64,000 nucleotides of DNA from a bacterium (lineage in GTDB: Bacteria > Patescibacteriota > Minisyncoccia > Phycocordibacterales > UBA5272), in contig JAYUJP010000027.1 in NCBI GenBank assembly GCA_043765155.1, positions 1,349 to 65,348 on the forward strand, given 5' to 3'. The translations under genes and the position numbers were made by a program. How positions within the stretch are numbered: position 1 is the stretch's first letter; each line of letters starts with the position of its first letter. Below are positions 4,201 to 56,734 of the stretch, piece after piece. The notes under the pieces are model-generated. The model was not told the DNA's origin and ran no database searches. It worked only from the letters and a program-made list of their open reading frames with translations.

Positions 4201-7200
4201 CCAATTCAAACTTCTTTGGATCCAGTGCTGGATTTAATGCTTTTAACGCAAGTAGTTCTAACTTTATTGGTAATAGTGCTGGATTTGCAGCATCTAACGC
4301 TAACGCCTCAAACTTCTTTGGACCTGCTGCTGGATTTGGCGCGACTGGCGCAGATAACTCAAATTTTATCGGTGCTCAATCTGGACAGGACGCAATTAAT
4401 TCAAGATTTTCTAATTTTGTAGGGTATGCAGCCGGCTCGGGAGCTTTGAACGCAGATAATTCCAACTTTTTTGGCCAAAATGCGGGGTCTAATACAAATG
4501 GTGCGGCTAGTTCAAACTTCTTTGGATCCAGTGCTGGATTTGGTGCGACTGGCGCTGCTAATTCTAACTTTTTTGGTACCAATGCTGGAAATAGTTCTGC
4601 TAATGCTGGCAACTCTAACTTCTTTGGTCTGAGTGCTGGATTTTTTGCAATTAACGCAAATAATTCCAATTTCTTTGGTGCAAATGCTGGACTTGCTGCT
4701 GCTGACGCCGCCAACTCGAACTTCTTTGGACTTGAAGCTGGTAGTTACGCATCAAATGCATATGGTTCAAATTTTTATGGAGTAAGCGCAGGATACGGAG
4801 CCGTTAATGCTAATAATTCTAACTTCTTTGGTACTGGTGCTGGTAATATTGCTACAAATGCCGCTAATTCTATATTTATAGGTACCAATGCTGGAGCGAG
4901 TGACATTGTAGATAATACTGCTGGTGGTACAAGCATATTAATAGGTAGTGGCAGTAATACTGGCGGCTTCTCAAACTCTATTGCTCTCGGCGCTAATGCA
5001 GTTAATACCAAAACAAATCAATTCTTAGTCGGACCAGATTATTCTGACTTTTCATTCCGTGGAATTAATTACACTTTTCCAAGTGTTCAAGGAAATGCCG
5101 GTGATACATTGACCAATGATGGTACGGGAGTATTAAGCTGGTCAACTTTAACCGGTGGAGGAAGGCCGATTACCGCATCAAATGGTCTTACATTATTAGG
5201 GGTAGACGTGAAGCTGGGGGGAGCGCTTAGTCAGGATACTTCTATAACACAAGGCGCTTTTGATTTAAGTTTCGCTAGAAATGGTTATGAGCTTCAAAAT
5301 TCTAATGCGGCCCCATATCTTGGTATTGGCGGAGCTATAACTGCTAATAATTTTGTTGGTGCTCGTTATACTGATGCTACTAGCGACGTTCAAAATGGTG
5401 TAATACAATTTGGCGGTCCGCGCCTTGCGAGCTTAAGAAGTTATAATAATAGTTTTGGGTATGAGACCGACTCCTCAATTTATGCTTCTCAGTCTGGTCT
5501 AAATTTACTTTTTAATGATAGTAACTCGGTAAATACAAGCGCAAATGTTGATGTGAATGGTCTGATCGTAAGTACTAGTGATGTTACAAGTAGCAATACG
5601 GGATTTCTTGGTCTTACAAATTCGGGTACAGCAAATTTTACAGTATCTGGTCCTAGCATATCTAGCGGACTATCGCTCAATAATGTCTCCGGCTCAGTGA
5701 GGCTATCTCAGCAGATTTTTGGCACAACACAGTCTATGAACATAGTCTCTGGAGGTATAGAATTTGATACACAGTCTACAAATAGATTTCGTATAGAAAA
5801 TAACGGAGACTTAAAAGCATTTGCATATGGATCTGGCAGAAATGATACAAGTGTCAGTACGCCATTTAACTTTTTATATACTGACTCAACAGGAGTCTTA
5901 TCGTCAGCACCTATTTCACTACTCGGGGGTAATGCCAGCAGCAGTATTATAGCAAGTAACGGACTTAACGCATCTGGCACAAATATAAAACTCGGTGGTG
6001 TGCTAACTCAAAATACAAATATAAACTTTGCTACAAATACTCTCACCTTTGACCAGAGTAACTTAAATTCTCGTTTTAAAATAAAAGGAGCGAGTGGATA
6101 TTCTACCCCATCAAATAGAACCCAATCTCTTTTTGAGGCTGAGCATTATGCAAATGCTGGATTCTCGATAGAAAGTTTTGAAAGTGGCCCACTCCTCGCA
6201 AATAAACATGGGACCAAATTAAATTTTACCAATAATCTATCTAACCCCTCTCTTGATCCTCTGGGCTCGTATATTAGAGGTGATAATCTTACAGGTGACT
6301 TTGAGTTTGGCACTAATGCGGGAGAGTCCGTAACATTAGGATCAGGTGGAGTTAGCGTTAATTCAAATAGTTTTATTTATCTATTTGGTAGTGATATACA
6401 ATTATACTCGCCAATAGTAAATTTTAGTCAATTTGGTAGCACTAGAGATGATAGTGCCTCTACTACACCGTCTAATTTTCTATATACAGATATTAACGGC
6501 TCTTTAAAATCTGCGCCAGTATCACTACTCGGTGGTAACTCGACTAGCTCATGGTCTCTGCTTGGCAATGCTGGCACTAATCCTGCAACTACCTTTTTAG
6601 GTACTACAGATGCACAAGACTTATCTATCAGAACTAATAATACAGAAGTTGCAAGGTTTGGGCAAAATAATAATTTTGCATTTGGTGTTGGTGCTCAGGC
6701 TGTTAACTCAGATAGCATAGCTATGGGAGCAGGAGCAGGAGCAGGAGCAACTAATGCACCATTTTCTAACTTCTTTGGGTCTGGTGCTGGATTTGGAGCT
6801 ATAAATGCAGCTAACTCTATATTTATAGGTACAAATGCTGGTGCAAATGACGCAGTAAATAATACTCTTGGTGCCGATACAAGTATACTCATAGGTAACA
6901 ATACAAACACAGGAGGATTTTCAAATTCTATCGCACTCGGTGAGGGAGCGGTAAACACATCTGCAAATCAGCTTTACATTAGGAACGCGATTACTAATTT
7001 TAATCTAGCTGGAGTAAATTACAGTTTTCCAACTGTGCAAGGCGCTCTTAATACTACTCTGAGTAACGATGGAAATGGAAACTTAACCTGGGTTGCACCC
7101 GGAGCAGGATCTATCACAGCATCAAATGGACTTAACGCTGTCGGAGTAGATGTAAGACTGGGTGGTGCTTTAAACACCCCAACTACAATAAACGCAACTG

Positions 7201-9785
7201 GAACAAACGACTTAACCATTTCCGGTACGTCGTATTCAAATAGTACGGGACTGTTTTCGGTCAACAGATTTGCAGGCACCTCAAACGCTGGAGCTGCAAT
7301 ACAAGCCAATTCTACCGCTGGTGCTGGACTTAATATGCTACAAAATGTAGGAGGTAGATTTGATGCTGTTAGTTTTGCTAATGGAGCGGGTACTAATTAT
7401 GGAACCCTGAACACAGCTAGCTTGGGACAGTCTGATACCTTTGCTACAAATGTGGGATCTAGAAGTGTGGCATCTATGAGTATAGGTGGTGGTAGCGTAG
7501 GCCAGTTACGCGGAGCTGAGAATGTTTCTAGTATCACAAATGGATCCGCTGGTAGAGCTTTTGGATCTTTGAATGAAGTAAATTTACAAAATGGTACAAG
7601 TGTAAATGAAGCATATGGTGTATTTACTGCTCTGAGTAAGCCAAGTGGTGCAACAGTAGGTAGATACTCAGGCTTTATTATGGAGGATAATAATACTGGT
7701 GTCGCTAATAGAGCAGGTCTTGCCTTGGTCTCACTTTCTAGTGTAAATTATACTGGCGAATGGGGTATATATAATGCTCTGAATAGAAATAATGCAATTA
7801 ATGGATCACTGATGGTGGGATCTACCACAGCACCAACAGAAAGACTAGACGTAGCGGGTAATCTCAGACTAAGAGGTGCCTTTATGCCGGGCAATCAGGC
7901 TGGTGGAGTGGGGTCACTACTCATATCTCAGGGTCCTAACGTTGCGCCAATATGGTCCAGTACTTCTACACTCGGATTATTGTCTAGTGCAAATAATGGC
8001 CTAACAGTAAACCCGGCAGGCAATGCGCAGCTTGGTGGTGGTCTATTACAAGACACAACTATTATCAATAATAACTTTGCGCTAGATATTGGTACAGGTA
8101 TAAATGGTCTTAAGGTAGCAGCTAATGGGCAAGTGGGTATTGGAAATAATATTGGAGCTATTCCAGGTGCAACTCTCTTAGTAAAAGATACAGTGGCGGG
8201 ATTTGCCTCACTCAATGTAGTCGGAGGGACTTCTGGAGGAGGAGCAATTACTAGATTTATAAATGACACTGGAGCGACTTACTTAACTGGTCTATCAGGT
8301 TCAAATAATAGTGCGCTTGGACTAGGTAATTATATTATACGCGATCAAAATGCAGGATTAAACAGATTGGTAGTAGCCTCAAATGGTAATGTAGGAATAG
8401 GAGATTTTACAAATGTGAATCCAGTAGAAAAGCTATCTGTAGCTGGAAATATAAACATATCTTCTGGTAGTGCTTATATGCTTAATGGTGTGAATGTGTT
8501 AAGATCACAAACCGCTTTGAATAATATTTATGCTGGTCCAGCTGGAAATCTAACTGGTACAGGTCAATACAATACCGCTATAGGATATGATTCATTTAAT
8601 GTAAACACTACTGGACAGCAAAACACTGCGACCGGTTTTCATTCTATGAATGGTAACACCACAGGTTCATTTAACACTGCAAATGGTCTAAATTCACTGT
8701 ATTTCAACTCTACAGGGAGTAACAATAACGCATTTGGATATAATGCTCTCTTTAGAACAACTTCATCTGGAAATAATGCATTCGGTAATGCTGCTTTGCA
8801 AGAAAATGTAAGTGGGATAGATAATGTGGCTATGGGTAATTCAACATTATCATTTTCATTAGGAAATACTAACTCAGCTTTTGGTTCGGCAGCCGGCGCA
8901 CTTTTAGTAAACGGTAATAATAATACCTTCAGTGGCTACAAAGCTGGTTTTGCTCAAACAGCAGGTAGCAACAACTTGGTGCTTGGCGCAAATACGGATC
9001 TTGCAAACCTTACAGGTTCTAATCAGTTAAATATTGCAAATATTATTTTTGGTACAGGACTCACTGGTTCAGTTAGCGCACCGCTAGGTAATATAGGCCT
9101 CGGCACCACCACCCCCGCCGAGCGCCTTCAAGTCCTCGGCGACATCCGTATAGGTACAAGTGGTGTTAACGGCTGTCTCCAGAACTTTGCAGGTACGGCT
9201 ATAGCTGGTGTATGTAGTTCAGATGAAAACCTAAAGATAAATATACAAGATCTAGCTACTAGCACAATGGACAAATTCTCAAAATTAAGATTCGTCTCAT
9301 ATAACTGGAACAACACAGCAGGTGAATTATACAAAAAGGATACTACTGCCACCAATACGGGTATATTAGCGCAACAAGTAGAAGGTATATTCCCAGAACT
9401 AGTAACTACAGATAATAAAGGATACAAGGTAGTAGATATCTCAACTCTGTTTATGTATAGTATGCAAGTAACCAGAGACCTAATAAATAGATTAGACGCA
9501 GAAGTCATTAATCTTAAGAATATAGTAGCGAGCTCCCTCACCGCTGAGCGTATATATGTAAAGAGGGTAGAGGCGGAGGAGGTAATAACACAAAAGTTAT
9601 GTGTTAAAAGCGCGTGCGTGACCGAAACAGAATTTTTAGAAATTATAAATAATAGAAACAACACAAGCGCTAACAATAATATAAATACAAATACAAATAC
9701 AAATACAAATACAACAACAGATACTATGAGCACAAGTACTCAAGATGTACCAGCAGCTACTAGTACAGAAATAGTAATACCTTAA
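1227..9785 (+). CDS. Giant (2852 aa) secreted glycine-rich repeat fibre protein with a C-terminal intramolecular-chaperone (Peptidase S74 / endosialidase-chaperone-like) domain
   Basis: N-terminal signal peptide. About 30 tandem ~20-aa units of type SNFFGxxAGxxAxNAxx. Tail-fibre-like motifs WSLLGNAGTNPAVNFIGTTDAQD and NIGIGTTTPxxxLxVxG. C-terminal CSSDENLKINIQDL...LRFVSYNWNN...GILAQQVEGIFPELV...GYKVVDISTLFMYSMQ matches the S74 auto-cleaving chaperone (Ser-x4-Lys). Ends in an NTNTNT tail. Confidence 0.8.
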   Translation: MKTNTPQNSIHLKPSLTQIYFKVFAFVIIVSTLFSGISPAFAALPQSLSYTAVLRDSTGTPLTGTNDFKVRYYDASTAGILMYEEEFLATTINTGGTFFLPLGTGLPISGTFSSINFNSPVFITLNTRINLTPTYDGEMNPRIPLRSVPYALNSQKLDGRIVGGANGVVAYDASSTINTNGLNASGTINALGNVNIAGTTTASSIFSTLINSITGIFSNLFLTSVATGTASDSVLVRDTVTGEVKQDTFANLLSSAITNTISFATSTNVLTSNVGGVISTTAIPAGASCIPGGSSPLTNECQGTSALQANTTGVRNSAFGDLTLASNTVGVSNTALGYSALAANVSGSNNGAFGGFSLFKNVSGNGNLANGISSLFNNVSGSRNTGVGNFSLTKLVTGVENIAIGFNAGFSQLGGDSNIIIGSNLDVPDLNGSNQLNIGDIIYGVGVSTSGGGNIGIGTTTPNAQFTTTGSVQFAGIGNSATNTNILTVDAAGNVETRSIVSLLAASASTTNIVSFATSTNIFTSNVNGVVSTTSLAGLVKNTKWYSENLAAPIIAPVATGLASIAVGDGAAATGRNIYAFGDEAGRGSNSSYSNFFGWRAGKNSGNGGTSENNFFGIAAGEGATNVAGGNFFGSRSGGDAINASFSNFFGESAGELAIRASFSNFFGRAAGSGAINANNSNFFGLEAGRNASNAYGSNFYGVGAGYEAINANNSNFLGTGAGNFATNAANSIFIGTNAGTSDLVDNTTGGTSILIGRNTNTGGFSNSIAIGESAINDRVNQFLVGPNYSDFSFRGVNYVFPASQGATGTTLVNDGSGVLSWAAAGASTSTNAWSLLGNAGTNPAVNFIGTTDAQDFIIRTDNVQTGKISADGTVISFGINAGVGTTNALSSSFIGVNSGSGAINAFFSNFFGQNAGANVINANRSNFIGINAGNGASAAQYSNLFGFNAGVDATNAIHSNFIGTGSGQDAINSQRSNFIGFDAGAGAPAASNSNFFGSSAGFNAFNASSSNFIGNSAGFAASNANASNFFGPAAGFGATGADNSNFIGAQSGQDAINSRFSNFVGYAAGSGALNADNSNFFGQNAGSNTNGAASSNFFGSSAGFGATGAANSNFFGTNAGNSSANAGNSNFFGLSAGFFAINANNSNFFGANAGLAAADAANSNFFGLEAGSYASNAYGSNFYGVSAGYGAVNANNSNFFGTGAGNIATNAANSIFIGTNAGASDIVDNTAGGTSILIGSGSNTGGFSNSIALGANAVNTKTNQFLVGPDYSDFSFRGINYTFPSVQGNAGDTLTNDGTGVLSWSTLTGGGRPITASNGLTLLGVDVKLGGALSQDTSITQGAFDLSFARNGYELQNSNAAPYLGIGGAITANNFVGARYTDATSDVQNGVIQFGGPRLASLRSYNNSFGYETDSSIYASQSGLNLLFNDSNSVNTSANVDVNGLIVSTSDVTSSNTGFLGLTNSGTANFTVSGPSISSGLSLNNVSGSVRLSQQIFGTTQSMNIVSGGIEFDTQSTNRFRIENNGDLKAFAYGSGRNDTSVSTPFNFLYTDSTGVLSSAPISLLGGNASSSIIASNGLNASGTNIKLGGVLTQNTNINFATNTLTFDQSNLNSRFKIKGASGYSTPSNRTQSLFEAEHYANAGFSIESFESGPLLANKHGTKLNFTNNLSNPSLDPLGSYIRGDNLTGDFEFGTNAGESVTLGSGGVSVNSNSFIYLFGSDIQLYSPIVNFSQFGSTRDDSASTTPSNFLYTDINGSLKSAPVSLLGGNSTSSWSLLGNAGTNPATTFLGTTDAQDLSIRTNNTEVARFGQNNNFAFGVGAQAVNSDSIAMGAGAGAGATNAPFSNFFGSGAGFGAINAANSIFIGTNAGANDAVNNTLGADTSILIGNNTNTGGFSNSIALGEGAVNTSANQLYIRNAITNFNLAGVNYSFPTVQGALNTTLSNDGNGNLTWVAPGAGSITASNGLNAVGVDVRLGGALNTPTTINATGTNDLTISGTSYSNSTGLFSVNRFAGTSNAGAAIQANSTAGAGLNMLQNVGGRFDAVSFANGAGTNYGTLNTASLGQSDTFATNVGSRSVASMSIGGGSVGQLRGAENVSSITNGSAGRAFGSLNEVNLQNGTSVNEAYGVFTALSKPSGATVGRYSGFIMEDNNTGVANRAGLALVSLSSVNYTGEWGIYNALNRNNAINGSLMVGSTTAPTERLDVAGNLRLRGAFMPGNQAGGVGSLLISQGPNVAPIWSSTSTLGLLSSANNGLTVNPAGNAQLGGGLLQDTTIINNNFALDIGTGINGLKVAANGQVGIGNNIGAIPGATLLVKDTVAGFASLNVVGGTSGGGAITRFINDTGATYLTGLSGSNNSALGLGNYIIRDQNAGLNRLVVASNGNVGIGDFTNVNPVEKLSVAGNINISSGSAYMLNGVNVLRSQTALNNIYAGPAGNLTGTGQYNTAIGYDSFNVNTTGQQNTATGFHSMNGNTTGSFNTANGLNSLYFNSTGSNNNAFGYNALFRTTSSGNNAFGNAALQENVSGIDNVAMGNSTLSFSLGNTNSAFGSAAGALLVNGNNNTFSGYKAGFAQTAGSNNLVLGANTDLANLTGSNQLNIANIIFGTGLTGSVSAPLGNIGLGTTTPAERLQVLGDIRIGTSGVNGCLQNFAGTAIAGVCSSDENLKINIQDLATSTMDKFSKLRFVSYNWNNTAGELYKKDTTATNTGILAQQVEGIFPELVTTDNKGYKVVDISTLFMYSMQVTRDLINRLDAEVINLKNIVASSLTAERIYVKRVEAEEVITQKLCVKSACVTETEFLEIINNRNNTSANNNINTNTNTNTNTTTDTMSTSTQDVPAATSTEIVIP

Positions 9786-21441: not shown

Positions 21442-21651
21442 TTTTAAAATATAAATAAGCAAAAAATATTTCTAAAATAGTTATAAAATAAAAAAGCATA
21501 AACAAGAAATAAGTGGCTAAAAAGCTTACAAAATAAAGGTTAAATATAGCTTGACAAATGTAATATATTATGTAATAATAGTAGAATCATTAACCCAGAG
21601 CCAAATCGTTGGCCAGTTGGTCAATGAAGCTCGTTCACAAGGAGATTATCC

Positions 21652-21933
21652 GTGAAAAAAACAATTGCTCTAATGCTGGCCGTTTCTGTTATTCTTGCTG
21701 GCTGTGGCAAGCCGATGACAACCAGCAAAAAAGAATATCCAACATACGGCCTATTCAACGAAAGCTCTGCGAAGAGCAAAGACGTGTGCTACGAGATATC
21801 GGTCGGAAACATCGTCTGGTCAATTGTTTTGGTTGAAACTCTCATTGCTCCGATTTATTTTGTCGGATGGAGTTTGTATAACCCTGTGCGTATGAAAAAA
21901 GACGCAAACGATCAATGTACGATTGACAGCTAA
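21652..21933 (+). CDS. Small lipoprotein, YceK/DUF1375-like, on a GC-rich (foreign-looking) island. GTG start.
   Basis: AAGGAG SD 7 nt before GTG. Lipobox LAGC. SIVLVETLIAPIYFVGW resembles YceK SLVFDTLLLPIDI. Local GC about 45-50% versus about 28% in the flanks. Confidence 0.55.
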   Translation: MKKTIALMLAVSVILAGCGKPMTTSKKEYPTYGLFNESSAKSKDVCYEISVGNIVWSIVLVETLIAPIYFVGWSLYNPVRMKKDANDQCTIDS

Positions 21934-21935
21934 AC

Positions 21936-21982
21936 CCCGCCACACTCACGGAAAACCCGTTGCAGTTGTGGCGGGTTTTTTA
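21936..21982 (+). terminator. Rho-independent terminator of the island lipoprotein gene
   Basis: CCCGCCACA...TGTGGCGGG followed by TTTTTTAT. Confidence 0.7.
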
Positions 21983-21997
21983 TTGTAATTTTTATTC

Positions 21998-22051
21998 TAT
22001 AATATATTTAAGAAATTAACTATTATTTTAATATTAATTAATTTAAATTTT
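21998..22051. repeat. 54-bp direct repeat, copy A (partner at 22739..22793). Contains a CTATAAT -10-like box.
   Basis: CTATAATATATTTAAGAAATTAACTATTATTTTAATATTAATTAATTTAAATTTT versus copy B, 2 mismatches. Confidence 0.8.
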
Positions 22052-22178
22052 CATAAATTATTGATGCTTCTCTGTTTGTTTTACAGTTGACTTTTGTGTG
22101 TACAAAATATATACTGTGTATATACAAATTATAAGTATTAAATTAACACTTAATAAATGATTCTACTTAATCAAATAT

Positions 22179-22451
22179 ATGCAAGCAGTTATAAATATAA
22201 AAACAGATTTAAGCTTAAAATTAGAAGCCAAGCAGTTAGCCCAAGATATGGGGTTAACTCTATCCTCTGTGATCAACAACTCATTAAAAGACTTTGTTAG
22301 GGCAAGGGCTATTTCTTTTGACAACAATTATGAACCTACAGAAAGACTTAAAAAATCAATTAGGCAAGCCGAACAAGATTTTGCTAAAAATAAAAACATA
22401 AGTAAGTCCGGTAAAGTCACAGATCTAAAAAAGCATTTGATGAGCCTATAG
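22179..22451 (+). CDS. Type II antitoxin, RelB/DinJ family
   Basis: Small ORF immediately upstream of and nearly abutting a RelE/YafQ-like toxin. DinJ-like N-terminus. Confidence 0.6.
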   Translation: MQAVINIKTDLSLKLEAKQLAQDMGLTLSSVINNSLKDFVRARAISFDNNYEPTERLKKSIRQAEQDFAKNKNISKSGKVTDLKKHLMSL

Positions 22452-22455
22452 GTTT

Positions 22456-22716
22456 ATGTTAATTTTTACAAATAAAAACTTTGACAAAAGTTTTGCTAAG
22501 CTCTCACCAAAAATCAAGGAATCTTTTATTAACAGATTAGATATTTTTGTAGCCGATAATTTTGACCCAGTCCTTAATAATCACTCCTTAAAAGGAGAGT
22601 ATTTTGGATATAGAAGCATAAATGTAACAGGAGATTATCGTGCTGTATATAAAATTGTGGCCACTCACGAAGTCTGCTTTATAGATATAGGTACTCACAG
22701 TCAATTATATAAGTAG
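22456..22716 (+). CDS. Type II toxin, RelE/YafQ-family mRNA interferase
   Basis: 86-aa ORF with a RelE/ParE-fold-like sequence (..GDYRAVYKIVATHEVCFIDIGTHSQLY). 4-nt gap to the antitoxin. Confidence 0.6.
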   Translation: MLIFTNKNFDKSFAKLSPKIKESFINRLDIFVADNFDPVLNNHSLKGEYFGYRSINVTGDYRAVYKIVATHEVCFIDIGTHSQLYK

Positions 22717-26005: not shown

Positions 26006-26551
26006 ATGAAAAAGATATTGACAAAAAATATAAAAGTACTTATTATTGTGCTTTTTATATTGTTTTTGATGGGTATAACAAAAACTTTTGCTAACACTAC
26101 GTCTGAATATAATCCCAGCAATAACTGGAGTAATAAAAAGTTTTTAGAAAATATAAATAGCGAAAGATCTAAAAAAAGCTTAACTAAGTTAATAGAAAAC
26201 AAAGAATTAAATAGGTTAGCCCAAGAGAGATTGGGCGATATGATAAAAAGTAATTACTTTTCACACTTCTCACCTAACAAAAAAAGTCTAGATGATATAT
26301 TGCCTGCTAGCGATTACAAGTATGTAGCAAGAGGGGAAAATCTAGCCTACGGTGAATTTGAGGATGAGGCAGATATTATAAATTCTTGGATGCAAAGTGA
26401 AGGTCATAAGTATAATATTTTATACAAAAAGTTCAAAGACATCGGTGTTGCTTATGCAATAGTTGACAATTATCAAGGTGGCAAATACATTGTAGTAGTC
26501 AATGTATTTGGATCGCAAAAAGTTGATAGCAAAATATTAGCCAAAAAATAA
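26006..26551 (+). CDS. Secreted CAP/SCP (YkwD-like) domain protein
   Basis: Signal peptide. GENLAYG...W..SEGHKYNIL...F.DIGVAYA, typical of the CAP domain. Confidence 0.6.
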   Translation: MKKILTKNIKVLIIVLFILFLMGITKTFANTTSEYNPSNNWSNKKFLENINSERSKKSLTKLIENKELNRLAQERLGDMIKSNYFSHFSPNKKSLDDILPASDYKYVARGENLAYGEFEDEADIINSWMQSEGHKYNILYKKFKDIGVAYAIVDNYQGGKYIVVVNVFGSQKVDSKILAKK

Positions 26552-26630
26552 TAAATTGTAGCTGATATAAATTAAAAAACTTAATTTATATCAGGTTGTA
26601 AGTCTCTAAAAATTATTATATAATACATTT

Positions 26631-26798
26631 ATGAACAAAAACATAATAAGAATATTTGCAGTCATAATGTTGCTAAGTCCATGGATATATATTGGGGAGA
26701 CGTTAAGAAGTGTTTTGATTATAGCAGCTAGTATTGTAATATTACTCGCTACTGTAGATATAAGTAACAAAAAGAAAAAAGAAGAGGTGATAAATTAA
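26631..26798 (+). CDS. Small (about 55 aa) membrane protein, not in the ORF track
   Basis: ATG preceded by TATATAAT. Two hydrophobic helices. Followed by a GC-rich terminator hairpin at about 26837..26870. Confidence 0.3.
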   Translation: MNKNIIRIFAVIMLLSPWIYIGETLRSVLIIAASIVILLATVDISNKKKKEEVIN

Positions 26799-26881
26799 TT
26801 TATATTTTTTTTAGAGTATAACTGATGTGCACAGATACAGGGCCGCCCGCAGGGCGGTCCTGTTATTTTTACATATTTTTA

Positions 26882-26890
26882 TGATATAAT
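26882..26890 (+). promoter_or_regulatory. Extended -10 promoter element TGATATAAT, about 16 nt upstream of the ATG (short leader)
   Basis: The same TTTATGATATAATCAT 16-mer recurs at 53427..53435. Related aTGATATAAT boxes are at 33051, 54452 and 62838. Confidence 0.45.
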
Positions 26891-26906
26891 CATTTGTAAG
26901 AAGTAT

Positions 26907-28604
26907 ATGCTAAGCCCACAAGAATTAGAAGACAAAAATAGAATCACATATTTTGGTGTGACTGACTTTCGCGGCATACAGGAAAAATTTGGCATTAAGG
27001 CAGAAGACAGAACGCGTCACATGTACGTGATAGGCAAGACTGGTATGGGTAAAAGTACCATGCTCGAGAATATGGCCATACAAGATATTCAGAACGGCGA
27101 AGGTATATGCTTTATTGATCCGCATGGTACCACCGCCGAAAAACTTTTAAAATATGTACCCGCTGATCGTATACACGATGTAGTCTACTTTGCGCCATTT
27201 GATACAAAGTATCCAATGGGTTTAAATATATTGGAGCATGTTGATGAGGATTATAGGCACCTTGTAGCTTCTGGGCTTATGGATACATTTAAAAAAGTTT
27301 TCGGTGAGGATGTATTTTCAGGGCGTATGGTGTATTTGCTCAATAACGCTATATTGTCACTACTTGAAAATGAAGGCGAGAGTATGATGGGTATTAACAG
27401 AATATATGCGGACAAAGATTATAGAAAAAAGATAATAAGTAATGTTAAGGACCCAGCATTGCTCGCCTTTTGGAATGAAGAGTTCGCAAAGTATGAGGAC
27501 AAATATGTAAAAGAGGCCAGCGCTGCAATACAAAATAAAATAGGGCAATTTATAATGACGCCAATAGTTAGAAATATTGTCGGACAAAAACATACAAGCT
27601 TTGACATACGTAAAATGATGGACGAGAGGAAAATATTAATATGTAACTTTTCAATAGGGCAGACAGGTTCTGAAAATGTTAACCTGATCGGGTCATTACT
27701 AATAACAAAGATATACTTAGCGGCTATGAGTCGGGCTAATTTAAAAGAGGATGAGCTTAAAAATAGCCCGCCGTTCTATTTTTATGTGGACGAATTTCAA
27801 AATTTTGTTAATGATAGCTTTGCCCAGATATTGTCACAGTCAAGAAAGTATAATCTTGGCCTAGTCATAGCTCATCAATATGTCGAGCAGCTGAGCGACA
27901 CTGTAAAGGCGGCTGTATTTGGTAATGTTGGATCTATGATATCTTTTAGAGTTGGCGCTACTGATGCTGAGCTGCTTGAAAAGGAGTATGCGCCGCAGTT
28001 CACAGCTGACGATATTGTTAATCTTGGAGCTAGGCAGATATATCTTAGGTTATCAATTGACGGCGTCGGGTCCAAGCCATTTTCAGGCCGTACTATGCCG
28101 CCAATCGAGAATCCAGAAGATAATTATGTACCAGCTGTTGTCGCTACTAGTAGGGCAATATATGCAAGGTCCAAGCCTGACGTCCAAGAAGAAGTTAAAA
28201 ATTGGTATGAGCCTGTTGTAAAAAGAGTATCGCCAAATGAAAATATAAATAACACAAATACAAACTTTGCAGAAAAAAGAATACAAGATAAAACAGAATT
28301 TAAAAAAAGTGATGTAAGTGAGTACAAGAAAGAGGAATATAAAAAAGAAAGTAAAATAAAAGAAGAAGTAAAAGTCTCTTACCCGCAAACTTTTGTTGAG
28401 AAAAAACAAGATAATAAAAGTAGCCCACTTCGTGAAGCATTGCAGTCAGCTATGAAAGTAGATGTAAAAAAAGAGAAAGAAAACGAAGAAGTAAAAAAAG
28501 TTAAAATTAATATAGACGAAGCCAAGAACACGTATACTGATATATTTGGAGATATAAAATTAGATCAAGAAAAGTTTAAAAAATTACTAGATCTACAAGA
28601 ATAG
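26907..28604 (+). CDS. VirD4/TraG-type (T4SS coupling protein-like, DUF87/TraM-recognition) P-loop ATPase, soluble form with a K/E-rich C-terminal tail
   Basis: Walker A IGKTGMGKST. Walker B FYFYVDEFQNF. Conserved HQ motif (LVIAHQY) downstream of Walker B. No N-terminal TM. Confidence 0.55.
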   Translation: MLSPQELEDKNRITYFGVTDFRGIQEKFGIKAEDRTRHMYVIGKTGMGKSTMLENMAIQDIQNGEGICFIDPHGTTAEKLLKYVPADRIHDVVYFAPFDTKYPMGLNILEHVDEDYRHLVASGLMDTFKKVFGEDVFSGRMVYLLNNAILSLLENEGESMMGINRIYADKDYRKKIISNVKDPALLAFWNEEFAKYEDKYVKEASAAIQNKIGQFIMTPIVRNIVGQKHTSFDIRKMMDERKILICNFSIGQTGSENVNLIGSLLITKIYLAAMSRANLKEDELKNSPPFYFYVDEFQNFVNDSFAQILSQSRKYNLGLVIAHQYVEQLSDTVKAAVFGNVGSMISFRVGATDAELLEKEYAPQFTADDIVNLGARQIYLRLSIDGVGSKPFSGRTMPPIENPEDNYVPAVVATSRAIYARSKPDVQEEVKNWYEPVVKRVSPNENINNTNTNFAEKRIQDKTEFKKSDVSEYKKEEYKKESKIKEEVKVSYPQTFVEKKQDNKSSPLREALQSAMKVDVKKEKENEEVKKVKINIDEAKNTYTDIFGDIKLDQEKFKKLLDLQE

Positions 28605-28665
28605 TATTTAAAAATTATTAGAGAAATTAATCCTCCTGCGCTAAAGCTTCGGAGGATAAGAAATT

Positions 28666-30075
28666 ATGAAAAAGAATTTATTATTTATTTTAGTGGGCAT
28701 ATTTTTTATAAATATTATTTTTGTAAAAAGTATTTTCGCTTTGCAGATTAGCGAGATTATGTATGACCCCGCGGGTAGCGACACCGGTAATGAGTGGATA
28801 GAGTTATATAATGATACGGGTAGCAGTATTAACCTAACCACTTATAAATTTTTTGAAAATAATGTTAATCACGGCATAACTGCAAATCAAGGAGGTAGTA
28901 GTATTAGTGCTGGCGAATATGTAGTGTTAGCTGATAATCCTACTAACTTTCTGGCGCAGCATGCAGGATATGTTGGTAAAATATTTGACAGTGCTTTTTC
29001 ACTTTCAAATAGCGGCGAATATTTAGAGATGCGAGACGCTAGTAATATTAACTTGTTTTCTGTAACCTATATTACAAATAACGACGCAAATGGTACCGGA
29101 GGAACTTTAAATTATATTGCAGGAGCTACCTCGACCTGGCAAGTTTTTATAGAGTCTCCAGGAGTAGTGTCACCGCAAAACGCTGTACAAAATAATTCTG
29201 CTAATGCTACCAGCAGCAACTCTACCTCTACGCCTAGCGCTACAACTACTAGCTCAAGCGCTACAAATACAACAACAAATACAGGTGCTACTAATTTTTA
29301 CAGCTCAGGTTATACAAATAAGACTTATACCCTTGGTGATCTTAATATGCTAACCCCAAAAGAAATATGGACTGTGGCTGGTGCCAATACCTACTTTTTT
29401 GTTAAGCCTATAGATTCAAAAAAGAATACAGTGCCTAGTAATACTTATTGGTCATTTGGTGATGGGGCAGAAGGTCTTGGCTCTACTACCACCCACAGAT
29501 ATTATAATGCGGGGTATTATACTGCTTTTGTCGAGAGTGAGATTAGTAATGCCTATGGTATTGAGCGTATAGCGGTAAATGTAGCAAGTCCGGACATATC
29601 AATAAGTGAAATTGGGGATAATTATATTATTATCAAAAATAATAGTAGCACAGAATTAAATATTGGAGGATTTATTATTGGTAGCGATCAGGGATTTTTT
29701 AAGCTATCGCGTCACCTTATTTTAAAAGAAAATTCTGAGCTAAAAATAGACGGTAGAGTAATGGGATTTACAAATCTTACCAACCCTAAAATATTATCTT
29801 CTGATATGGCTAACATATCTGTATATAAGAATAAAGCTAATATAAATCAAGAAATAAAATCAGAAATCCCTAATGCCACTTCTACCTTACAGATAAATAA
29901 AAAAGTCATATTGTCTAAAAATTATCTTTATAAAAATAATCAGTACAAAAAAGACTTAAACCCAAAAGAAAAATCTACAAGCTCTGTAGCATCACTCGCC
30001 GCTAATATAACTCCACCTGTGGACATTACACCTATCAAAAAGGTGAAAAATTGGTTATACTGGTTATATGAATAA
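28666..30075 (+). CDS. Secreted lamin-tail-domain (LTD) protein with a PKD-like domain
   Basis: Signal peptide. LTD motif ISEIMYDPAGSDTGNEWIELYN, and a second LTD-like copy. PKD-like WSFGDGAEGLGSTTTHRYYNAGYYTAFV. Confidence 0.65.
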   Translation: MKKNLLFILVGIFFINIIFVKSIFALQISEIMYDPAGSDTGNEWIELYNDTGSSINLTTYKFFENNVNHGITANQGGSSISAGEYVVLADNPTNFLAQHAGYVGKIFDSAFSLSNSGEYLEMRDASNINLFSVTYITNNDANGTGGTLNYIAGATSTWQVFIESPGVVSPQNAVQNNSANATSSNSTSTPSATTTSSSATNTTTNTGATNFYSSGYTNKTYTLGDLNMLTPKEIWTVAGANTYFFVKPIDSKKNTVPSNTYWSFGDGAEGLGSTTTHRYYNAGYYTAFVESEISNAYGIERIAVNVASPDISISEIGDNYIIIKNNSSTELNIGGFIIGSDQGFFKLSRHLILKENSELKIDGRVMGFTNLTNPKILSSDMANISVYKNKANINQEIKSEIPNATSTLQINKKVILSKNYLYKNNQYKKDLNPKEKSTSSVASLAANITPPVDITPIKKVKNWLYWLYE

Positions 30076-31480
30076 AATTAAATTAAGCCTATTTTGCTTG
30101 TGTCTTTTTACAGCAGCTTTTTCTTATAATGCGTATGCTGCTAATTGGTGGGATGTTGGATACTCGCAGGGAGTTACTGTGCAGAGTAGTACTCAGAGTC
30201 AAGTTATAATACCTGAGACTAATATATCTACTAATCCTAGCACCTCCAATAATTCAAATACAAATTCTACTACAAATATAAGTACGACCCCTCTAAAAAT
30301 TATAAGTTATGATGTAGAGGGTGACGCTAATGGTAACAATATAAGAGATGAGGTTGATGGTATAATATCAAGTCTAGTATCTCAATATAATTTTGACCTA
30401 AAGCAAAAAAGGTCTTTGGAGCAGATAGCTAGGTCCTATCAGTATGTGCTTATATTTGCTCCTAATAGTGTGAGCTCTGCTTTTCAAGTTAATATAAGAG
30501 ATGTGGCCGCTACAAAGTGTGCTGAGCAGAGGCTACCTGCCAGCACACTTGACCTTGTTGTAGAAAAAATAGAAGCAGCAACCCTTAATACTCCTCAAAA
30601 GAGAGCGGCATACGATGTTTATACAAACTTTTTAGATGAAAATAGTCAGGGAGTTAGCAGCAATTCTTCTTGTGAGGACGAATTTTCTGGGTCTGGTGCA
30701 AACCCTAATAATGGAGGACCTATTACTTTGGGTGAGCAGTCTTTGCCTTGCCTAGTACTGAACCAGTTTATGGAAATAGGTAGCTCAGGTCAGCAAGTTA
30801 TCAAGCTTCAGACCTTTCTAGTATTATCAGGTAATATGTCAGTGTGGCCAACTGGATATTTTGGAGGTAATACAGCCTTTGCTGTCAAAAATTTCCAAAA
30901 CAAATACGGCATAGATAGCAGCAGATCATGGGTTGGTCCTAGTACTAGGGCAAAAGTAGCTGAGACAACCTGTAACGGAGACCCTAGTGCAATAGCTTCA
31001 GCTCGTAATGGTTTTAGTGTTAAAAAGTATGTAGCCCCTAAAAAAGTAGTATACAAAAAGCCAGCAATTAAGACTGTGTCTGAGACTACAACAATAGAGA
31101 TAGCAACTACAACTATTGAGACATCAACTATTTTTGTAGATAATACTAGCCTCGCTGTACTATCTAATACGTCTGGGACTTTTGATACAAGAAGAAACCC
31201 GATCAATGCACTTTACTTTACAGTAAAAGCCGACACAAAAAGAGACGAGTTATATGTATGTACCGAGAGTAAGTTAAATTCAAATTGTTTTGATCAAAGT
31301 TCATATACACTAGTTAGGCAAAAGTATGACAGTACTACCTACGACAGTATAGCTAGCAACGATAGATGGATATTTAATATATATTATAATCAAAATACTT
31401 GGGGTAATACAGGAGGAAAAATATATTTTAAAAATGGCACCGGCGGAGTCCCGAGTGTATATAGTGTGAACGTAAGATAA
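30068..31480 (+). CDS. Secreted protein with a peptidoglycan-binding (PG_binding_1) domain
   Basis: Signal peptide. GQQVIKLQTFLVLSG...GYFGGNTAFAVKNFQNKYGI. 8-nt overlap with the upstream gene. Confidence 0.55.
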   Translation: MNKIKLSLFCLCLFTAAFSYNAYAANWWDVGYSQGVTVQSSTQSQVIIPETNISTNPSTSNNSNTNSTTNISTTPLKIISYDVEGDANGNNIRDEVDGIISSLVSQYNFDLKQKRSLEQIARSYQYVLIFAPNSVSSAFQVNIRDVAATKCAEQRLPASTLDLVVEKIEAATLNTPQKRAAYDVYTNFLDENSQGVSSNSSCEDEFSGSGANPNNGGPITLGEQSLPCLVLNQFMEIGSSGQQVIKLQTFLVLSGNMSVWPTGYFGGNTAFAVKNFQNKYGIDSSRSWVGPSTRAKVAETTCNGDPSAIASARNGFSVKKYVAPKKVVYKKPAIKTVSETTTIEIATTTIETSTIFVDNTSLAVLSNTSGTFDTRRNPINALYFTVKADTKRDELYVCTESKLNSNCFDQSSYTLVRQKYDSTTYDSIASNDRWIFNIYYNQNTWGNTGGKIYFKNGTGGVPSVYSVNVR

Positions 31481-31635
31481 GTCATATTTTTTAAATTTAA
31501 GAAAAAATAACTTAAAAATATATATCTGAAATTTTAAATCAAGAGTTAAATAAACAAGAAATAAATGTTAAAAAATTCTCTTTTTTCAGAAGCTCATATT
31601 TTGTAATCTCCCTACCCTTAATAATATTAACATGT

Positions 31636-31866
31636 TTGATATTTTATAATTATATTATCCATCCTTGTGGCAATGATTGGGGGTGTAACTTGTATTTTGC
31701 TCTTGCTTTCATGCTCACGCTGCCTGTACTTATAGTAACTTCTTTTTTAATACTCTTTAATTTTCTTTTTAGAAGAAGTGTACAGAGTAAGTGGGCCAGA
31801 TTCTTTTTAGTCATATTCCTTTTCACACTAATAGTTTTATTCTTAGTTTCCTATTTTCTATTTTAA
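31636..31866 (+). CDS. Small hypothetical membrane protein
   Basis: ORF track. Two hydrophobic helices. Confidence 0.25.
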   Translation: MIFYNYIIHPCGNDWGCNLYFALAFMLTLPVLIVTSFLILFNFLFRRSVQSKWARFFLVIFLFTLIVLFLVSYFLF

Positions 31867-31949
31867 TGGCTTCCGAGTATTAAAATTGTGTTATTGGTTA
31901 TAGGCCTAAACCACTTTACATTAGACTATGAATAGGTTATAATTAGACC

Positions 31950-33005
31950 ATGTTAAAACCAGTATTTAGCCTAAATACAGAGCTGTTAGATAATATAGTA
32001 AAGATTAAAAATATTGTAAGTGAGTTAAATAATCAAAAGTTTTCAGGCTTGGTATTGTTAGACTTGGAAAAAAATAGTTATGCGCTATCCGCTTTTGCCT
32101 CTACTAGTATAGAAGGAAACCCCCTACCCTTAACAGACGTAAAAAGACTTTTAAAACAAAAGCCAGAAAAAATTAGAGATACAGAAAGAGAGGTGCTAAA
32201 TTATAATAAGGCTCTTGAATTTTTAAATACTGAAACATCCAGAGACCTAAAGGTAAAAGTAAATACAGATAAAAGCAAAAAATTAGAATCAAAAATAAAT
32301 AATGATTTTATTTGCAAGATACAGTCTATTGTAATAGAGGGGCTATTAGATAAAAGTAATATTGGGAAATTTAGGAAAAATCCTGTCATAGTCAACGACC
32401 CTAAAAAAAGAAAAGTAGCATATATACCGGCAGATGCAAAAGACGTAGAAAGACTAATGAGTGAGCTCACGAATTTTATACATTCAGAAGCCAAAAATGT
32501 CGACCCTTTAATTTTGGCTGGGATTTTCCATAAGCAATTTGTTATAATTCATCCGTTTATGGATGGTAACGGTAGGACAACTAGACTGGTGACAAAGTAT
32601 TTATTGGCTAGTATGGGACTAGACACTTTTAAGCTTTTTAGTTTTGAGAATTACTATAATAAAAATGTGACTAATTATTTTTCAAAAGTAGGTGTGCTGG
32701 GTGATTATTATGAGATAAAAGATAAAATTGATTTTACTGACTGGCTAGTTTATTTTACAGGAGGTATTATTGATGAGCTTCTAAGAGTTCAGAAAATACT
32801 TGAGAGCACTAATATAAAAAGAACAGAACCTTATGAGCAGATAATTCTTGATTTTATTAAAAAGAACAAATCTATCTCTAAAAGTGAATATGAAAAAATT
32901 ACAGACAGAAAAAGATCTACCCAAATTTTAGATTTTAAAAGATTGGTAGATAAAGGTATGATAAAAAGAGAAAATAAAGGCAAGGCCACTTATTATACTA
33001 TCTAA
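31950..33005 (+). CDS. Fic family protein (class II, N-terminal inhibitory helix) with a C-terminal winged HTH
   Basis: Fic motif HPFMDGNGRTTRL. Inhibitory motif (S/T)xxxE(G/N) = STSIEGN upstream of the core. C-terminal wHTH. Confidence 0.8.
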   Translation: MLKPVFSLNTELLDNIVKIKNIVSELNNQKFSGLVLLDLEKNSYALSAFASTSIEGNPLPLTDVKRLLKQKPEKIRDTEREVLNYNKALEFLNTETSRDLKVKVNTDKSKKLESKINNDFICKIQSIVIEGLLDKSNIGKFRKNPVIVNDPKKRKVAYIPADAKDVERLMSELTNFIHSEAKNVDPLILAGIFHKQFVIIHPFMDGNGRTTRLVTKYLLASMGLDTFKLFSFENYYNKNVTNYFSKVGVLGDYYEIKDKIDFTDWLVYFTGGIIDELLRVQKILESTNIKRTEPYEQIILDFIKKNKSISKSEYEKITDRKRSTQILDFKRLVDKGMIKRENKGKATYYTI

Positions 33006-56463: not shown

Positions 56464-56469
56464 AAAGAA

Positions 56470-56508
56470 AACCCGCCAAAACGAATTTTCTTCGTTGGCG
56501 GGTTTATT
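56470..56508. terminator. Bidirectional rho-independent terminator (AOX-like gene and island lipoprotein)
   Basis: AAAACCCGCCAA...TTGGCGGGTTTATTT. Confidence 0.7.
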
Positions 56509-56734
56509 TGCTACAGGTAGCAATTTGACCGTCGTTCCGGTACCTTACGCTTGCTCCTCCATTTGGGAACATAAGGTAAGCTATGCCGTCTATACAAATC
56601 GGTTTTGTCATAGGAACAATTTTCTGCTTTTCTGCTTCGTTGCTTACAACGGGAACGCTTTTTTGTCCTAATAAGTCGCAACCAGCGAGTGCGATAAACG
56701 TTACAAATACAGCGGTAATTTTAATAACTTTCAT
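56504..56734 (-). CDS. Small lipoprotein on the second GC-rich (foreign-looking) island
   Basis: AGGAGG SD 6 nt before ATG. Lipobox LAGC. Local GC about 45-50%. No close family recognised by eye. Confidence 0.5.
   Translation of the reverse strand: MKVIKITAVFVTFIALAGCDLLGQKSVPVVSNEAEKQKIVPMTKPICIDGIAYLMFPNGGASVRYRNDGQIATCSK

Follow-up and report, generated by a model that had tools for sequence, protein, structure and literature searches.

A moron-like lipoprotein cassette of probable horizontal origin in a Patescibacteria chromosome

Introduction

Phage morons carry their own promoter and terminator and have a deviating GC content, and one of them, gp15 of phage HK97, confers superinfection exclusion (PMC3594210). 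The gene described here, which encodes a lipoprotein precursor of 93 aa, is comparable to lambda bor, itself a lipoprotein gene, and to HK97 gp15 in that it forms an independent unit of one small gene with deviating base composition and specifies a small membrane protein or lipoprotein. Its family is moreover phage-borne and includes a copy in phage 11b. It differs from Bor and gp15 in lacking any sequence or fold similarity to them, and it differs from phage morons in general in that the copy studied is chromosomal and lies outside any recognisable prophage, and in that most of the copies in large phages have no terminator of their own.

A second set of related systems comprises Ltp of the S. 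thermophilus phage TP-J34, Cor of phi80 and N15, and Llp of T5, which like the 93-aa protein are small phage-encoded lipoproteins and act on their own at the cell surface. Surface lipoproteins of the Ltp type exclude phages in bacteria with a single membrane (PMC3952083), and Patescibacteria are thought to be single-membraned as well. The likeness to the 93-aa protein is limited to the signal peptide, to which the Cor family phrog_1119 aligns over residues 1-20; the mature domains are unrelated, and Ltp, Cor and Llp lack its very hydrophobic conserved hairpin. A third type of protein, the unimolecular spanin exemplified by gp11 of phage T1, shares with it an N-terminal lipoprotein signal and, towards the C-terminus, another hydrophobic segment. 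To our knowledge, very little has been established about the effects of phages on Patescibacteria or about envelope defence in these tiny episymbionts.

The gene lies in a 64-kb stretch of a Patescibacteria genome, referred to here as the window. Its surroundings are chromosomal, with genes for NusA, trigger factor, Pth, an ABC transporter, MetRS, DnaK and ClpB, and there are no prophage or structural phage genes around it in the window. The cassette sits between pth and the relB/yafQ toxin-antitoxin pair. The window copy is thus moron-like rather than strictly a moron: it does not reside in a phage or prophage, although members of its family do.

Organisation of the cassette

The coding sequence occupies positions 21652-21933 of the forward strand and consists of 93 codons starting with GTG. 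Some gene callers miss or shorten it. The signal peptide (21652-21705) comprises an MKK n-region and a hydrophobic core and ends in the lipobox LAGC (21694-21705), the N-terminus of the precursor reading MKK-TIALMLAVSVI-LAGC with the lipobox at L15-A16-G17-C18. The charged n-region, hydrophobic core and lipobox that define a bacterial lipoprotein precursor are therefore all in place, and lipoprotein signal models cover residues 1-20/29 of the 93-aa precursor. Cys18 is kept in 237 of 241 family sequences and is predicted from this sequence pattern to be lipidated as a substrate of Lgt and LspA, neither of which is encoded within the 64-kb window.

A Shine-Dalgarno (SD) sequence, AAGGAG, is found at 21639-21644 on the forward strand, 7 nt 5' of the GTG start. 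An earlier note on this DNA had described the AAGGAG motif, the GTG start and the LAGC lipobox, all of which are present, and had held that native genes are essentially devoid of SDs, which is borne out by the finding that an SD core of at least 5 nt precedes the first start in only three of the 59 ORF-called genes of the window. One of the three is the 93-aa gene and another lies in a similarly built second cassette (56504-56734); these two cassettes also account for all lipobox proteins in the 64 kb.

The 5' leader, which would extend from a putative transcription start to the start codon (21586-21651, forward strand), is GC-rich (47%) and is predicted to form two hairpins with a folding energy of -22.5 kcal/mol (z = -3.6). 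In the second of these the SD is paired (GGA/UCC), and so is the GTG start (UUCAC/GUGAA). The sequence CAAGGAGAT around the SD is common to the loci L006/L007 and L014, and comparison with the upstream regions of relatives revealed no homology beyond CAAGGAGAT(T). A derivation of the leader from the membrane-protein gene that lies upstream in L014 and L001 was considered and rejected, as only the SD context is shared; local alignments in this test scored P = 0.06 and 0.89 against shuffles, and blastn-short and tblastx searches of the leader against all loci gave no match.

Upstream of the leader lies a candidate sigma-70-like promoter (21551-21579, forward strand), proposed on its consensus match, with TTGACA at 21551-21556, a spacer of 17 nt and AATAAT at 21574-21579. 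The second hexamer is preceded by TG, making the site TG-extended. With 11 of 12 consensus positions it is listed first in the 15-30 kb region, where it is one of three matches with this score. The earlier note had placed a TTGACA-N17 promoter at the left boundary of the GC-rich segment; such a site exists, about 5 nt further to the left and in the AT-rich flank outside the segment. Matches of the sigma-70 type are scarcely enriched in this AT-rich DNA (81 observed against 67 ± 8 expected), and native genes have similar promoter-like sites upstream, for instance relB at 22087-22115.

The coding sequence is followed by an intrinsic terminator (21935-21981, forward strand), in which the arms CCCCGCCACA (21935-21944) and TGTGGCGGG (21967-21975) form a stem ahead of a T6 run (21976-21981). 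This strong terminator folds at -26.4 kcal/mol (z = -4.0), which none of 200 shuffles equals. The textbook terminator claimed earlier is there, with a run of six rather than seven Ts. Native genes in the window have GC-rich terminators too. As in morons, a single gene is enclosed by a promoter candidate and a terminator. The cassette would be a self-contained unit of SD, gene and terminator that is read from the adjacent sigma-70-like promoter. The only Rfam matches in the window are five tRNAs, all of them outside the cassette region.

A perfect 12-nt inverted repeat brackets positions 21580-22167, its left arm (AGTAGAATCATT) lying at 21580-21591 and its right arm (AATGATTCTACT) at 22156-22167, 12 nt before the relB ATG, and TAAT abuts each arm on the outside. 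Its meaning is uncertain; the probability of such an arrangement is about 0.013 in a post hoc calculation. The repeat and its TAAT were considered as transposon ends, but no further copies were found and nothing similar is present at the second cassette; they are left unexplained.

Base composition and contiguity

The segment 21590-21982 has a GC content of 44.8%, against a window mean of 35.3%, and ranks in the top 2.8% of windows of the same size. The earlier note had contrasted a GC content of about 45-50% with flanks of about 28%; the segment is indeed GC-rich, and the adjacent intergenic flanks have 16-18%. The GC steps at both edges of the cassette are abrupt. At third codon positions the gene is the most GC-rich of the 59 in the window, with a GC3 of 0.473 compared to 0.295 ± 0.047 for the other 58 (maximum 0.393; z = 3.75), a value reached by only 1.3% of length-matched in-frame segments. 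Together, the GC of the segment and the GC3 of the gene give the cassette the deviating composition that is expected of a moron.

Abrupt steps of this kind, together with the observation that several contigs elsewhere end beside homologues of the 93-aa gene, could point to an assembly chimera joining the DNA of two organisms, as the earlier note had allowed. In comparisons of 4,001 and 12,442 bases that include both junctions, however, the contigs L031 and L140, which come from different samples and assemblers, match the window at 100% identity, and L032, L005 and L141 do so wherever they overlap it. With five contigs from other assemblies thus matching perfectly across one or both junctions the chimera is refuted, and its probability is practically nil.

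A family shared by phages and Patescibacteria

The 93-aa protein belongs to a family of lipoproteins of about 90 residues with 54 close homologues and at least 585 representatives at E <= 1e-3. Beyond matches to the signal peptide, no model for the family was found in Pfam, PHROG, NCBIfam or PADLOC, which leaves an annotation gap of at least 585 representative clusters without a Pfam or PHROG model. The nearest relatives (60-82% identity) are encoded by other Patescibacteria MAGs and by phage contigs, the closest being L014 with 82% identity. In IMG/VR, 25 contigs predicted to be phage carry the family, of which 13 are 90 kb or longer, and ten out of ten tested neighbour proteins of these carriers match PHROG families such as DNA ligase, SbcC and phage RNA polymerase subunits. 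A carrier contig that binning had placed in a Paceibacterota MAG is a phage in its own right: it encodes a small terminase subunit along with RusA and ParB. In the cultured Flavobacterium phage 11b, the genes for the capsid and the head-tail adaptor flank that of the family member gp26, which is followed by a terminator of its own. One small gene is common to Patescibacteria chromosomes, a Paceibacterota-binned phage, many large uncultured phages and phage 11b, and the large unnamed family circulates among phages and Patescibacteria chromosomes. Taken as a single locus, the cassette would amount to an ordinary lateral transfer of a hypothetical protein.

The genomic setting of the family is variable. 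Clustering of the neighbours over 42 loci revealed no conserved partner gene; the 93-aa gene is accompanied by a membrane protein of phrog_2169 solely in L014 and in L001, of which L002, L003 and L015 are duplicate loci. A terminator is found just downstream of 11 of 15 chromosomal copies but of only four of 21 phage copies, and in most large phages the gene is located inside long co-directional arrays. Since the phage copies mostly lack their own terminator, the moron build is a property of the chromosomal copies and of phage 11b and not of the whole family.

The earlier note had likened the product to YceK/DUF1375 and had derived the cassette from a higher-GC Gram-negative donor, possibly a host. 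YceK and YidQ (DUF1375, PF07119) do resemble the 93-aa protein in their size of about 75-95 residues, in the position of the lipobox near residue 16-18 and in a hydrophobic stretch with the pattern [DE]-T-x3-P in the C-terminal half. One distant homologue, P0040, bears the JGI label "uncharacterized protein YceK", and binning assigned a few of the carrier contigs to Proteobacteria. Against these points, PF07119 matches none of 34 scanned members (the query and 33 homologues) at E <= 10, and the precomputed Pfam annotation lists it for none of the 54 homologues; of the 120 YceK relatives listed, by contrast, nearly all carry it. An hhalign comparison of the family profile (61 sequences) with a 12-sequence YceK profile aligned only query residues 3-27, that is, signal peptide and lipobox; the YceK alignment is low in diversity and a very remote relationship could escape this comparison. 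Searches of E. coli genomes and plasmids at the DNA and protein level gave no match, the DNA search having taken in 5,426 E. coli genomes. The range of YceK is also enterobacterial, unlike that of the family described here, whose closest relatives come from Patescibacteria and phages. YceK/DUF1375 homology was accordingly rejected on the basis of Pfam searches of the 34 members and of hhalign against both E. coli YceK alone and the 12-sequence profile. The YceK reading is largely refuted, and it is very improbable that the gene encodes an outer-membrane lipoprotein of this type recently received from a higher-GC proteobacterial genome.

Origin of the cassette

Several observations bear on whether the gene was acquired or inherited. 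The neighbours of the homologues differ in every Patescibacteria genome, so that there is no synteny with any of them, and of the 80 more distant pth loci covered by a metagenome scan via Pth (best identity 44%) not one carries the gene. No empty site was found, as all contigs with an identical Pth also carry the cassette DNA, and exact-protein look-ups returned the same genome only. The sister copy in L014 is located in an island of 50-54% GC within a genome of 38% GC, together with the phrog_2169 membrane protein, which is of the "moron" category, and the gene is a compositional outlier in L014, L028 and L019 as well, in both directions. Patchy distribution, lack of synteny, and atypical composition and signals are the hallmarks of a horizontally acquired islet, and the cassette was very probably acquired in this manner as a member of a phage-linked family. 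It would have been inserted between pth and relB/yafQ in a low-GC and essentially SD-less chromosome.

The alternative of a native, vertically inherited envelope lipoprotein, whose GC content and SD result from functional constraint or high expression, is consistent with the overall GC of the coding sequence (42.6%), which lies within native limits (43.8% in the most GC-rich of the other genes), with the position of the promoter-like site in native-looking AT-rich DNA and with the GC-rich terminators of native genes. Synonymous sites are saturated relative to all known relatives, and the raised GC3 could partly reflect the codon preference of a highly expressed gene. A GC3 of 3.75 SD above the other 58 genes, an SD that is nearly unique in the window, the 80 pth loci without the gene, the absent synteny, the abundance of the family on phage contigs and the obvious GC island in L014 with its phage-type gene speak against vertical inheritance, which is distinctly unlikely.

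Of the proposal that the cassette was recently acquired from a higher-GC Gram-negative organism, the foreign origin thus stands, supported by GC3, SD, differing neighbours and the 80 pth loci; a Gram-negative donor of YceK is unsupported by relatives that are found in Patescibacteria and phages. The word "recent" is doubtful, because the GC3 of 0.47 is intermediate between 0.61-0.83 in the relatives and 0.30 in the host, and because synonymous sites are saturated even in comparison with the closest known copy, L014. For the latter dN is 0.11, and the saturation of dS precludes both a dN/dS ratio and a dating of the transfer. Substitutions among the homologues lie chiefly at third codon positions. 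Compared to L014, the window copy is AT-shifted, with A or T at 46 differing sites and the opposite at 13. SDs are used by 21-62% of the genes in higher-GC relatives and by 7% in this genome.

A transferred cassette could also be a stranded relic that is not properly expressed or processed in its host, which would have no anti-SD and perhaps no lipoprotein pathway, and persists by chance. The host genes lack SDs, no native lipobox protein is encoded in the 64 kb, and the gene was overlooked or truncated by some gene callers; furthermore, the anti-SD motif is absent in a subgroup of Parcubacteria (PMC9297842). The ORF is nevertheless intact and retains every near-invariant residue of the family, the SD is preserved together with its spacing, as are the promoter-like site and the terminator, and the AT shift has taken place without disruption, which implies time under purifying selection. 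The chances of a relic are accordingly slim. We regard as the better account, with moderate confidence, a laterally acquired moron-like cassette that has partly shifted to the base composition of its host and encodes a lipid-anchored, membrane-dipping mini-protein with a probable role at the envelope.

Predicted structure and proposed envelope function

The most conserved and most hydrophobic stretch of the protein, GNIVWSIVLVETLIAPIYFVGWSL, spans residues 52-75 (21805-21876, forward strand) and is predicted to form a helix-break-helix. The AlphaFold2 model has a mean pLDDT of 87 and a pTM of 0.71 and contains helices at residues 51-59 and 65-73, where the pLDDT is about 90. Within this stretch Glu62, Thr63 and Pro67 are near-invariant in the family, and the mean Kyte-Doolittle hydropathy of the hydrophobic segment is 1.99 over 19 residues. 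Cys46 and a C-terminal Cys are found together in 75 of 75 sequences (a count uncorrected for phylogeny), which argues that both ends are on the same, oxidising side. In the topology suggested by the model, which seems reasonably probable, the lipid anchor on Cys18 would tether the protein to the cell membrane on its outer face, the membrane surface would carry a short beta platform, the helix-break-helix (52-75, with Glu62-Thr63 and Pro67) would dip into the membrane, and a Cys46-Cys89 disulfide would keep both ends outside.

Such a protein would probably act autonomously at the envelope. By analogy with the phage lipoproteins and morons introduced above, its likeliest role may be to block a membrane or surface component used by incoming phages or foreign DNA, resulting in superinfection or entry exclusion. 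This specific role in exclusion or defence is put forward tentatively. The 93-aa protein has no match in PADLOC, PDB or BFVD, its mature domain showing neither sequence nor fold similarity to the characterised exclusion proteins in these collections, and its matches to the PHROG Cor and NCBIfam EexN families cover residues 1-20/29 only, i.e. the signal peptide.

A phage-derived envelope protein might instead serve another purpose, for example as a lysis or spanin-like accessory, in regulating or inhibiting a membrane machine of the host during infection, or in adhesion and surface remodelling for episymbiosis. The combination of a lipid anchor and a second membrane-embedded segment recalls the unimolecular spanins, two family members match an Rz-like spanin PHROG weakly, and many copies are located among the DNA-metabolism genes of large phages. 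The 93-aa protein is however much shorter than a unimolecular spanin, the linker of about 33 residues between anchor and hydrophobic stretch could not span the periplasm, and the predicted broken hairpin would place both ends on one side. There is likewise no lysis-cassette context: neither endolysin nor holin is conserved as a neighbour, and the phage 11b copy lies between head and tail genes rather than in a lysis cassette. The spanin match of the window protein itself, like that to Cor, is confined to the signal peptide. A role other than exclusion is thus rather unlikely as an explanation of the whole.

A more far-reaching reading supposes a new class of lipid-anchored hairpin mini-proteins with a fold of their own, by which phages of diverse hosts (Bacteroidota, Patescibacteria and the hosts of jumbo phages) would shut a conserved entry route of the envelope. 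Patescibacteria would have captured it repeatedly as a one-gene module against phages or DNA uptake, and it would remain functional here despite bearing an SD in a lineage that may be without an anti-SD, its translation then being SD-independent. We consider this reading improbable. For the preferred reading of a laterally acquired envelope protein, the gene is a testable candidate for a phage-host interaction at the envelope, and gp26 of phage 11b offers an experimental handle in a cultured system. An SD combined with a raised GC3 can also serve to flag foreign genes in SD-less Patescibacteria genomes. The protein of the second cassette at 56504-56734 has its homologues within its own cluster only.

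Expression signals and genomic setting

The lipoprotein gene (21652-21933, forward strand) consists of 93 codons in an intact ORF that opens with GTG; the Shine-Dalgarno (SD) sequence AAGGAG (21639-21644) lies 7 nt upstream of this start. Its product begins MKKTIALMLAVSVILAGCGKPM… and carries a textbook lipoprotein signal, in which a basic n-region is followed by 11 hydrophobic core residues and then by the lipobox LAGC, whose cysteine is Cys18. The start codon, SD and lipobox described in an earlier note are all present; NCBIfam lipoprotein models align only to residues 1-20/29 of the 93-aa protein. On the 3' side of the TAA stop, the arms CCCCGCCACA (21935-21944) and TGTGGCGGG (21967-21975) form a terminator stem on the same strand (folding energy -26.4 kcal/mol, z = -4.0), which is followed by six T's rather than the claimed T7. 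The claimed TTGACA-N17 promoter corresponds to a forward-strand TTGACA-17 nt-TG-extended AATAAT candidate (21551-21579) that scores 11/12 against the sigma-70 consensus and stands first among the three 11/12 matches listed for 15 kb. It sits, however, in the AT-rich flank, and such matches are hardly above expectation in window DNA, where comparable sites also precede native genes. The presumed 65-nt leader (47% GC) adopts a stable fold (-22.5 kcal/mol, z = -3.6), and in its second predicted hairpin both the SD and the start codon are base-paired.

The window represents bacterial chromosomal DNA, with genes for NusA, trigger factor, Pth, MetRS, DnaK, ClpB and five tRNAs. The GC-rich island seen in it by the earlier note is real: the segment 21590-21982 has 44.8% GC against a window mean of 35.3% and ranks in the top 2.8% of same-size windows, with immediately adjoining intergenic flanks of 16-18% GC. 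The third-position GC (GC3) of the lipoprotein gene, 0.473, is the highest among 59 genes (others 0.295 ± 0.047, maximum 0.393) and is matched by only 1.3% of length-matched in-frame segments. An SD of at least 5 nt at the first start is found in just 3 of the 59 genes, this one included, which agrees with the assertion that native genes essentially never have one. A Parcubacteria subgroup is without the anti-SD motif (PMC9297842), and the window contains no 16S gene; the SD may be an inheritance from the donor and not a working signal.

A similarly built second cassette lies on the reverse strand at 56469-56813. It comprises a promoter-like TTGACA-N17-TATAAT, the SD TAAGGAGG, a 76-aa ORF (56504-56734; MKVIKITAVFVTFIALAGC…) with an LAGC lipobox, and the terminator AAACCCGCCAA/TTGGCGGGTTT with a T-run (arms also given as CCCGCCAA/TTGGCGGG). 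The two cassettes hold the only credible lipobox ORFs in 64 kb and two of the three SD-bearing genes. The protein of the second has no Pfam match and no homologues outside its own 90%-identity cluster.

An assembly artefact, the chimeric join that had been offered as an alternative, is ruled out by five additional contigs, which stem from other samples and other assemblers and cover both junctions at 100% identity to the window. Four are from ENA, namely L031 (4,001/4,001 bases compared), the 124.5-kb scaffold L140 (12,442 bases), L032 (its full 1,826 bases) and L141 (its full 1,457 bases, ending at window 22231), and one from Logan, L005 (2,632 bases, starting at window 21369). The 93-aa ORF is absent from the annotation of L140 (6592-7328) and is begun at Met8 on L031 (1868-2128) and L032, giving an 86-aa product that lacks the n-region; small genes with a GTG start and an atypical composition are under-annotated in these genomes. 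Independent metagenome contigs (L006, L007, L008 and L009 at their ends, and L005) stop about 40-280 nt from the lipoprotein gene, and the gene or its flank may therefore be common to co-occurring genomes and break assembly graphs.

An undescribed lipoprotein family

A database search returned 54 homologous proteins of 44-100% identity, and a profile search, run against 1.84 billion representatives, at least 585 at E <=1e-3, with 385 of these at <=1e-10. The family is undescribed, without a model in Pfam, NCBIfam, PHROGs or PADLOC. The earlier note had likened the protein to YceK/DUF1375, an identity that is rejected: PF07119 has no match to the lipoprotein or 33 homologues even at E <=10, and a profile-profile comparison of 61 family members with 12 YceK sequences aligns residues 3-27 only, i.e. 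the signal peptide and lipobox. Precomputed Pfam annotation is likewise blank for all 54 homologues, whereas PF07119 appears in nearly all of 120 listed YceK relatives. Both proteins have [DE]-T-x3-P in a hydrophobic stretch, but homology could not be demonstrated.

Near-invariant residues are Cys18, Gly33, Tyr47, Gly52-Asn53, Trp56, Glu62-Thr63, Pro67, Gly72 and Pro78. In a DNA alignment of the homologues conservation is limited to the CDS, with third positions taking most changes, and the flanks are unconserved except for CAAGGAGAT(T) at the ribosome-binding site. Compared with the nearest copy, dN is 0.11 and dS is saturated, which indicates strong purifying selection on the lipoprotein.

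An AlphaFold2 model built from 61 sequences (mean pLDDT 87, pTM 0.71) shows, besides the signal helix and some short strands, strands at 45-49 and 76-81 with two helices (51-59 and 65-73) between them; Foldseek found no similar fold in PDB or BFVD. Residues 54-72 have a mean hydropathy of 1.99, above that of the signal peptide, and no part of the protein is better conserved. A cysteine in the C-terminal tail occurs in 75/75 sequences with Cys46 and in 43/135 without it, counts that ignore kinship. Together, the model, hydropathy, conservation and cysteine co-occurrence point to a predicted topology in which a lipid-anchored protein would dip into the membrane by a helix-break-helix, with both ends probably on the outer, oxidising side and joined by a disulfide.

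Phage-linked carriers and horizontal transfer

Patescibacteria MAGs carrying the gene are labelled Paceibacterota, "Saccharibacteria", Sungbacteria, Uhrbacteria and Magasanikiibacteriota, and the neighbours differ in each genome: a zeta toxin (L001), murE and the division-cell-wall cluster (L006, L007), smpB and a methyltransferase (L010, L012), rmuC and L21 (L033), or pth and relB/yafQ (window). The last are a RelB antitoxin and YafQ/ParE-type toxin pair (22179-22716, forward strand) directly 3' of the cassette, which with the zeta toxin of L001 suggests variable, mobile-gene-rich neighbourhoods.

The family is also found on 25 IMG/VR contigs, thirteen of at least 90 kb and four above 200 kb, and on an 85-kb phage-like Logan contig. 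All ten neighbour proteins tested on phage contigs gave strong PHROG matches, among them DNA ligase, SbcC, homing endonucleases and phage RNA polymerase subunits. Phage 11b, a cultured temperate phage of Flavobacterium, encodes the family member gp26 between its major capsid and head-tail adaptor genes, and a terminator of its own comes after the gp26 gene. Overall, terminators follow 4 of 21 copies on phages, compared with 11 of 15 on chromosomes. One 19.7-kb contig, filed once within a Paceibacterota MAG (L027; GenBank JBAZJI010000006.1) and once as a virus (L054; IMGVR_UViG_3300029288_000807), has genes for a small terminase subunit, RusA, ParB and an HNH endonuclease beside a family member, and is a candidate Patescibacteria phage or mis-binned phage. 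A few other carriers are binned as Proteobacteria, Flavobacteriaceae or Fibrobacteria.

The majority of homologues reside, with native-looking composition, in genomes of 46-57% GC, at whose loci 21-62% of genes use an SD compared with 7% in the window. In at least three other genomes the gene is itself a compositional island, GC-rich in L014 (50-54% against 38% for the rest of the locus) and L028 (48% against 35%), and AT-rich in L019 (43% against 64.5%). In L019, binned as Xanthobacteraceae, the member lies in about 1.1 kb at 40-46% GC (1-1300) beside the contig end, and this reverse island could reflect transfer or a chimera.

The closest relative (82% amino-acid identity) is in L014, a MAG labelled Saccharibacteria. 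Its island (900-1650) holds two genes, the lipoprotein with a terminator after it and, directly 5' of the lipoprotein, a 107-aa membrane protein that matches phrog_2169 (E = 3e-16), filed by PHROGs under "moron, auxiliary metabolic gene and host takeover"; the pair recurs in the Paceibacterota locus L001. The window copy is without this partner, and its leader is not recognisable as a remnant of it. At sites differing between the window and L014, 46 are A/T in the window where L014 has G/C and 13 the reverse, and GC3 is 0.47 versus 0.80. The window copy has therefore probably been drifting toward host composition for some time, and the "recent" of the earlier note is not warranted. A proteobacterial host is not indicated as donor either; the best guess is another Patescibacterium or a phage of Patescibacteria. 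What stands of that account is the observation itself and horizontal transfer, which is borne out by the GC3 outlier, the SD oddity, the differing neighbours and the islands in other genomes, while YceK, the donor, recency and chimera fall away.

No empty insertion site was found by a Pth-based metagenome scan and exact-protein look-ups. The island, together with about 170 nt of AT-rich DNA, is enclosed by a perfect 12-nt inverted repeat, AGTAGAATCATT (21580-21591) and AATGATTCTACT (22156-22167). TAAT directly adjoins each arm on the outside; the left arm comes after the -10 element, and 12 nt separate the right arm from the relB start. By a post hoc estimate the repeat is nominally unusual (P about 0.013); it has no further copies in the window, and could represent insertion ends, a shared operator or chance.

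Possible role

The comparisons made here show the gene to be foreign, from a phage-linked family and, as read from its signals, a putatively autonomous and expression-ready small-lipoprotein unit. The cassette is a moron-like accessory lipoprotein cassette. Across 42 loci the family has no conserved neighbour and so the lipoprotein appears to work alone, presumably at the envelope. In function its closest analogues are phage morons and lysogenic-conversion lipoproteins, including Cor and Llp. HK97 gp15 and lambda bor (PMC3594210) and the Ltp-type exclusion lipoproteins (PMC3952083) also belong here, and by this analogy superinfection or entry exclusion is tentatively favoured as the role. An envelope role other than exclusion, or a stranded relic, may be considered, but is unlikely.

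Elsewhere in the window, a giant 2,852-aa ORF (1227-9785, forward strand) has as its sole Pfam match a C-terminal Peptidase_S74, the domain that serves endosialidase-type phage tail spikes and fibres as an intramolecular chaperone. A forward-strand gene run at 26006-33005 recalls a DNA-transfer or cell-wall-crossing apparatus, encoding a CAP-domain protein, a TrwB/TraG-like coupling ATPase (26907-28604), a lamin-tail (LTD) domain protein, proteins with peptidoglycan-binding domains and a phrog_5978 homologue.
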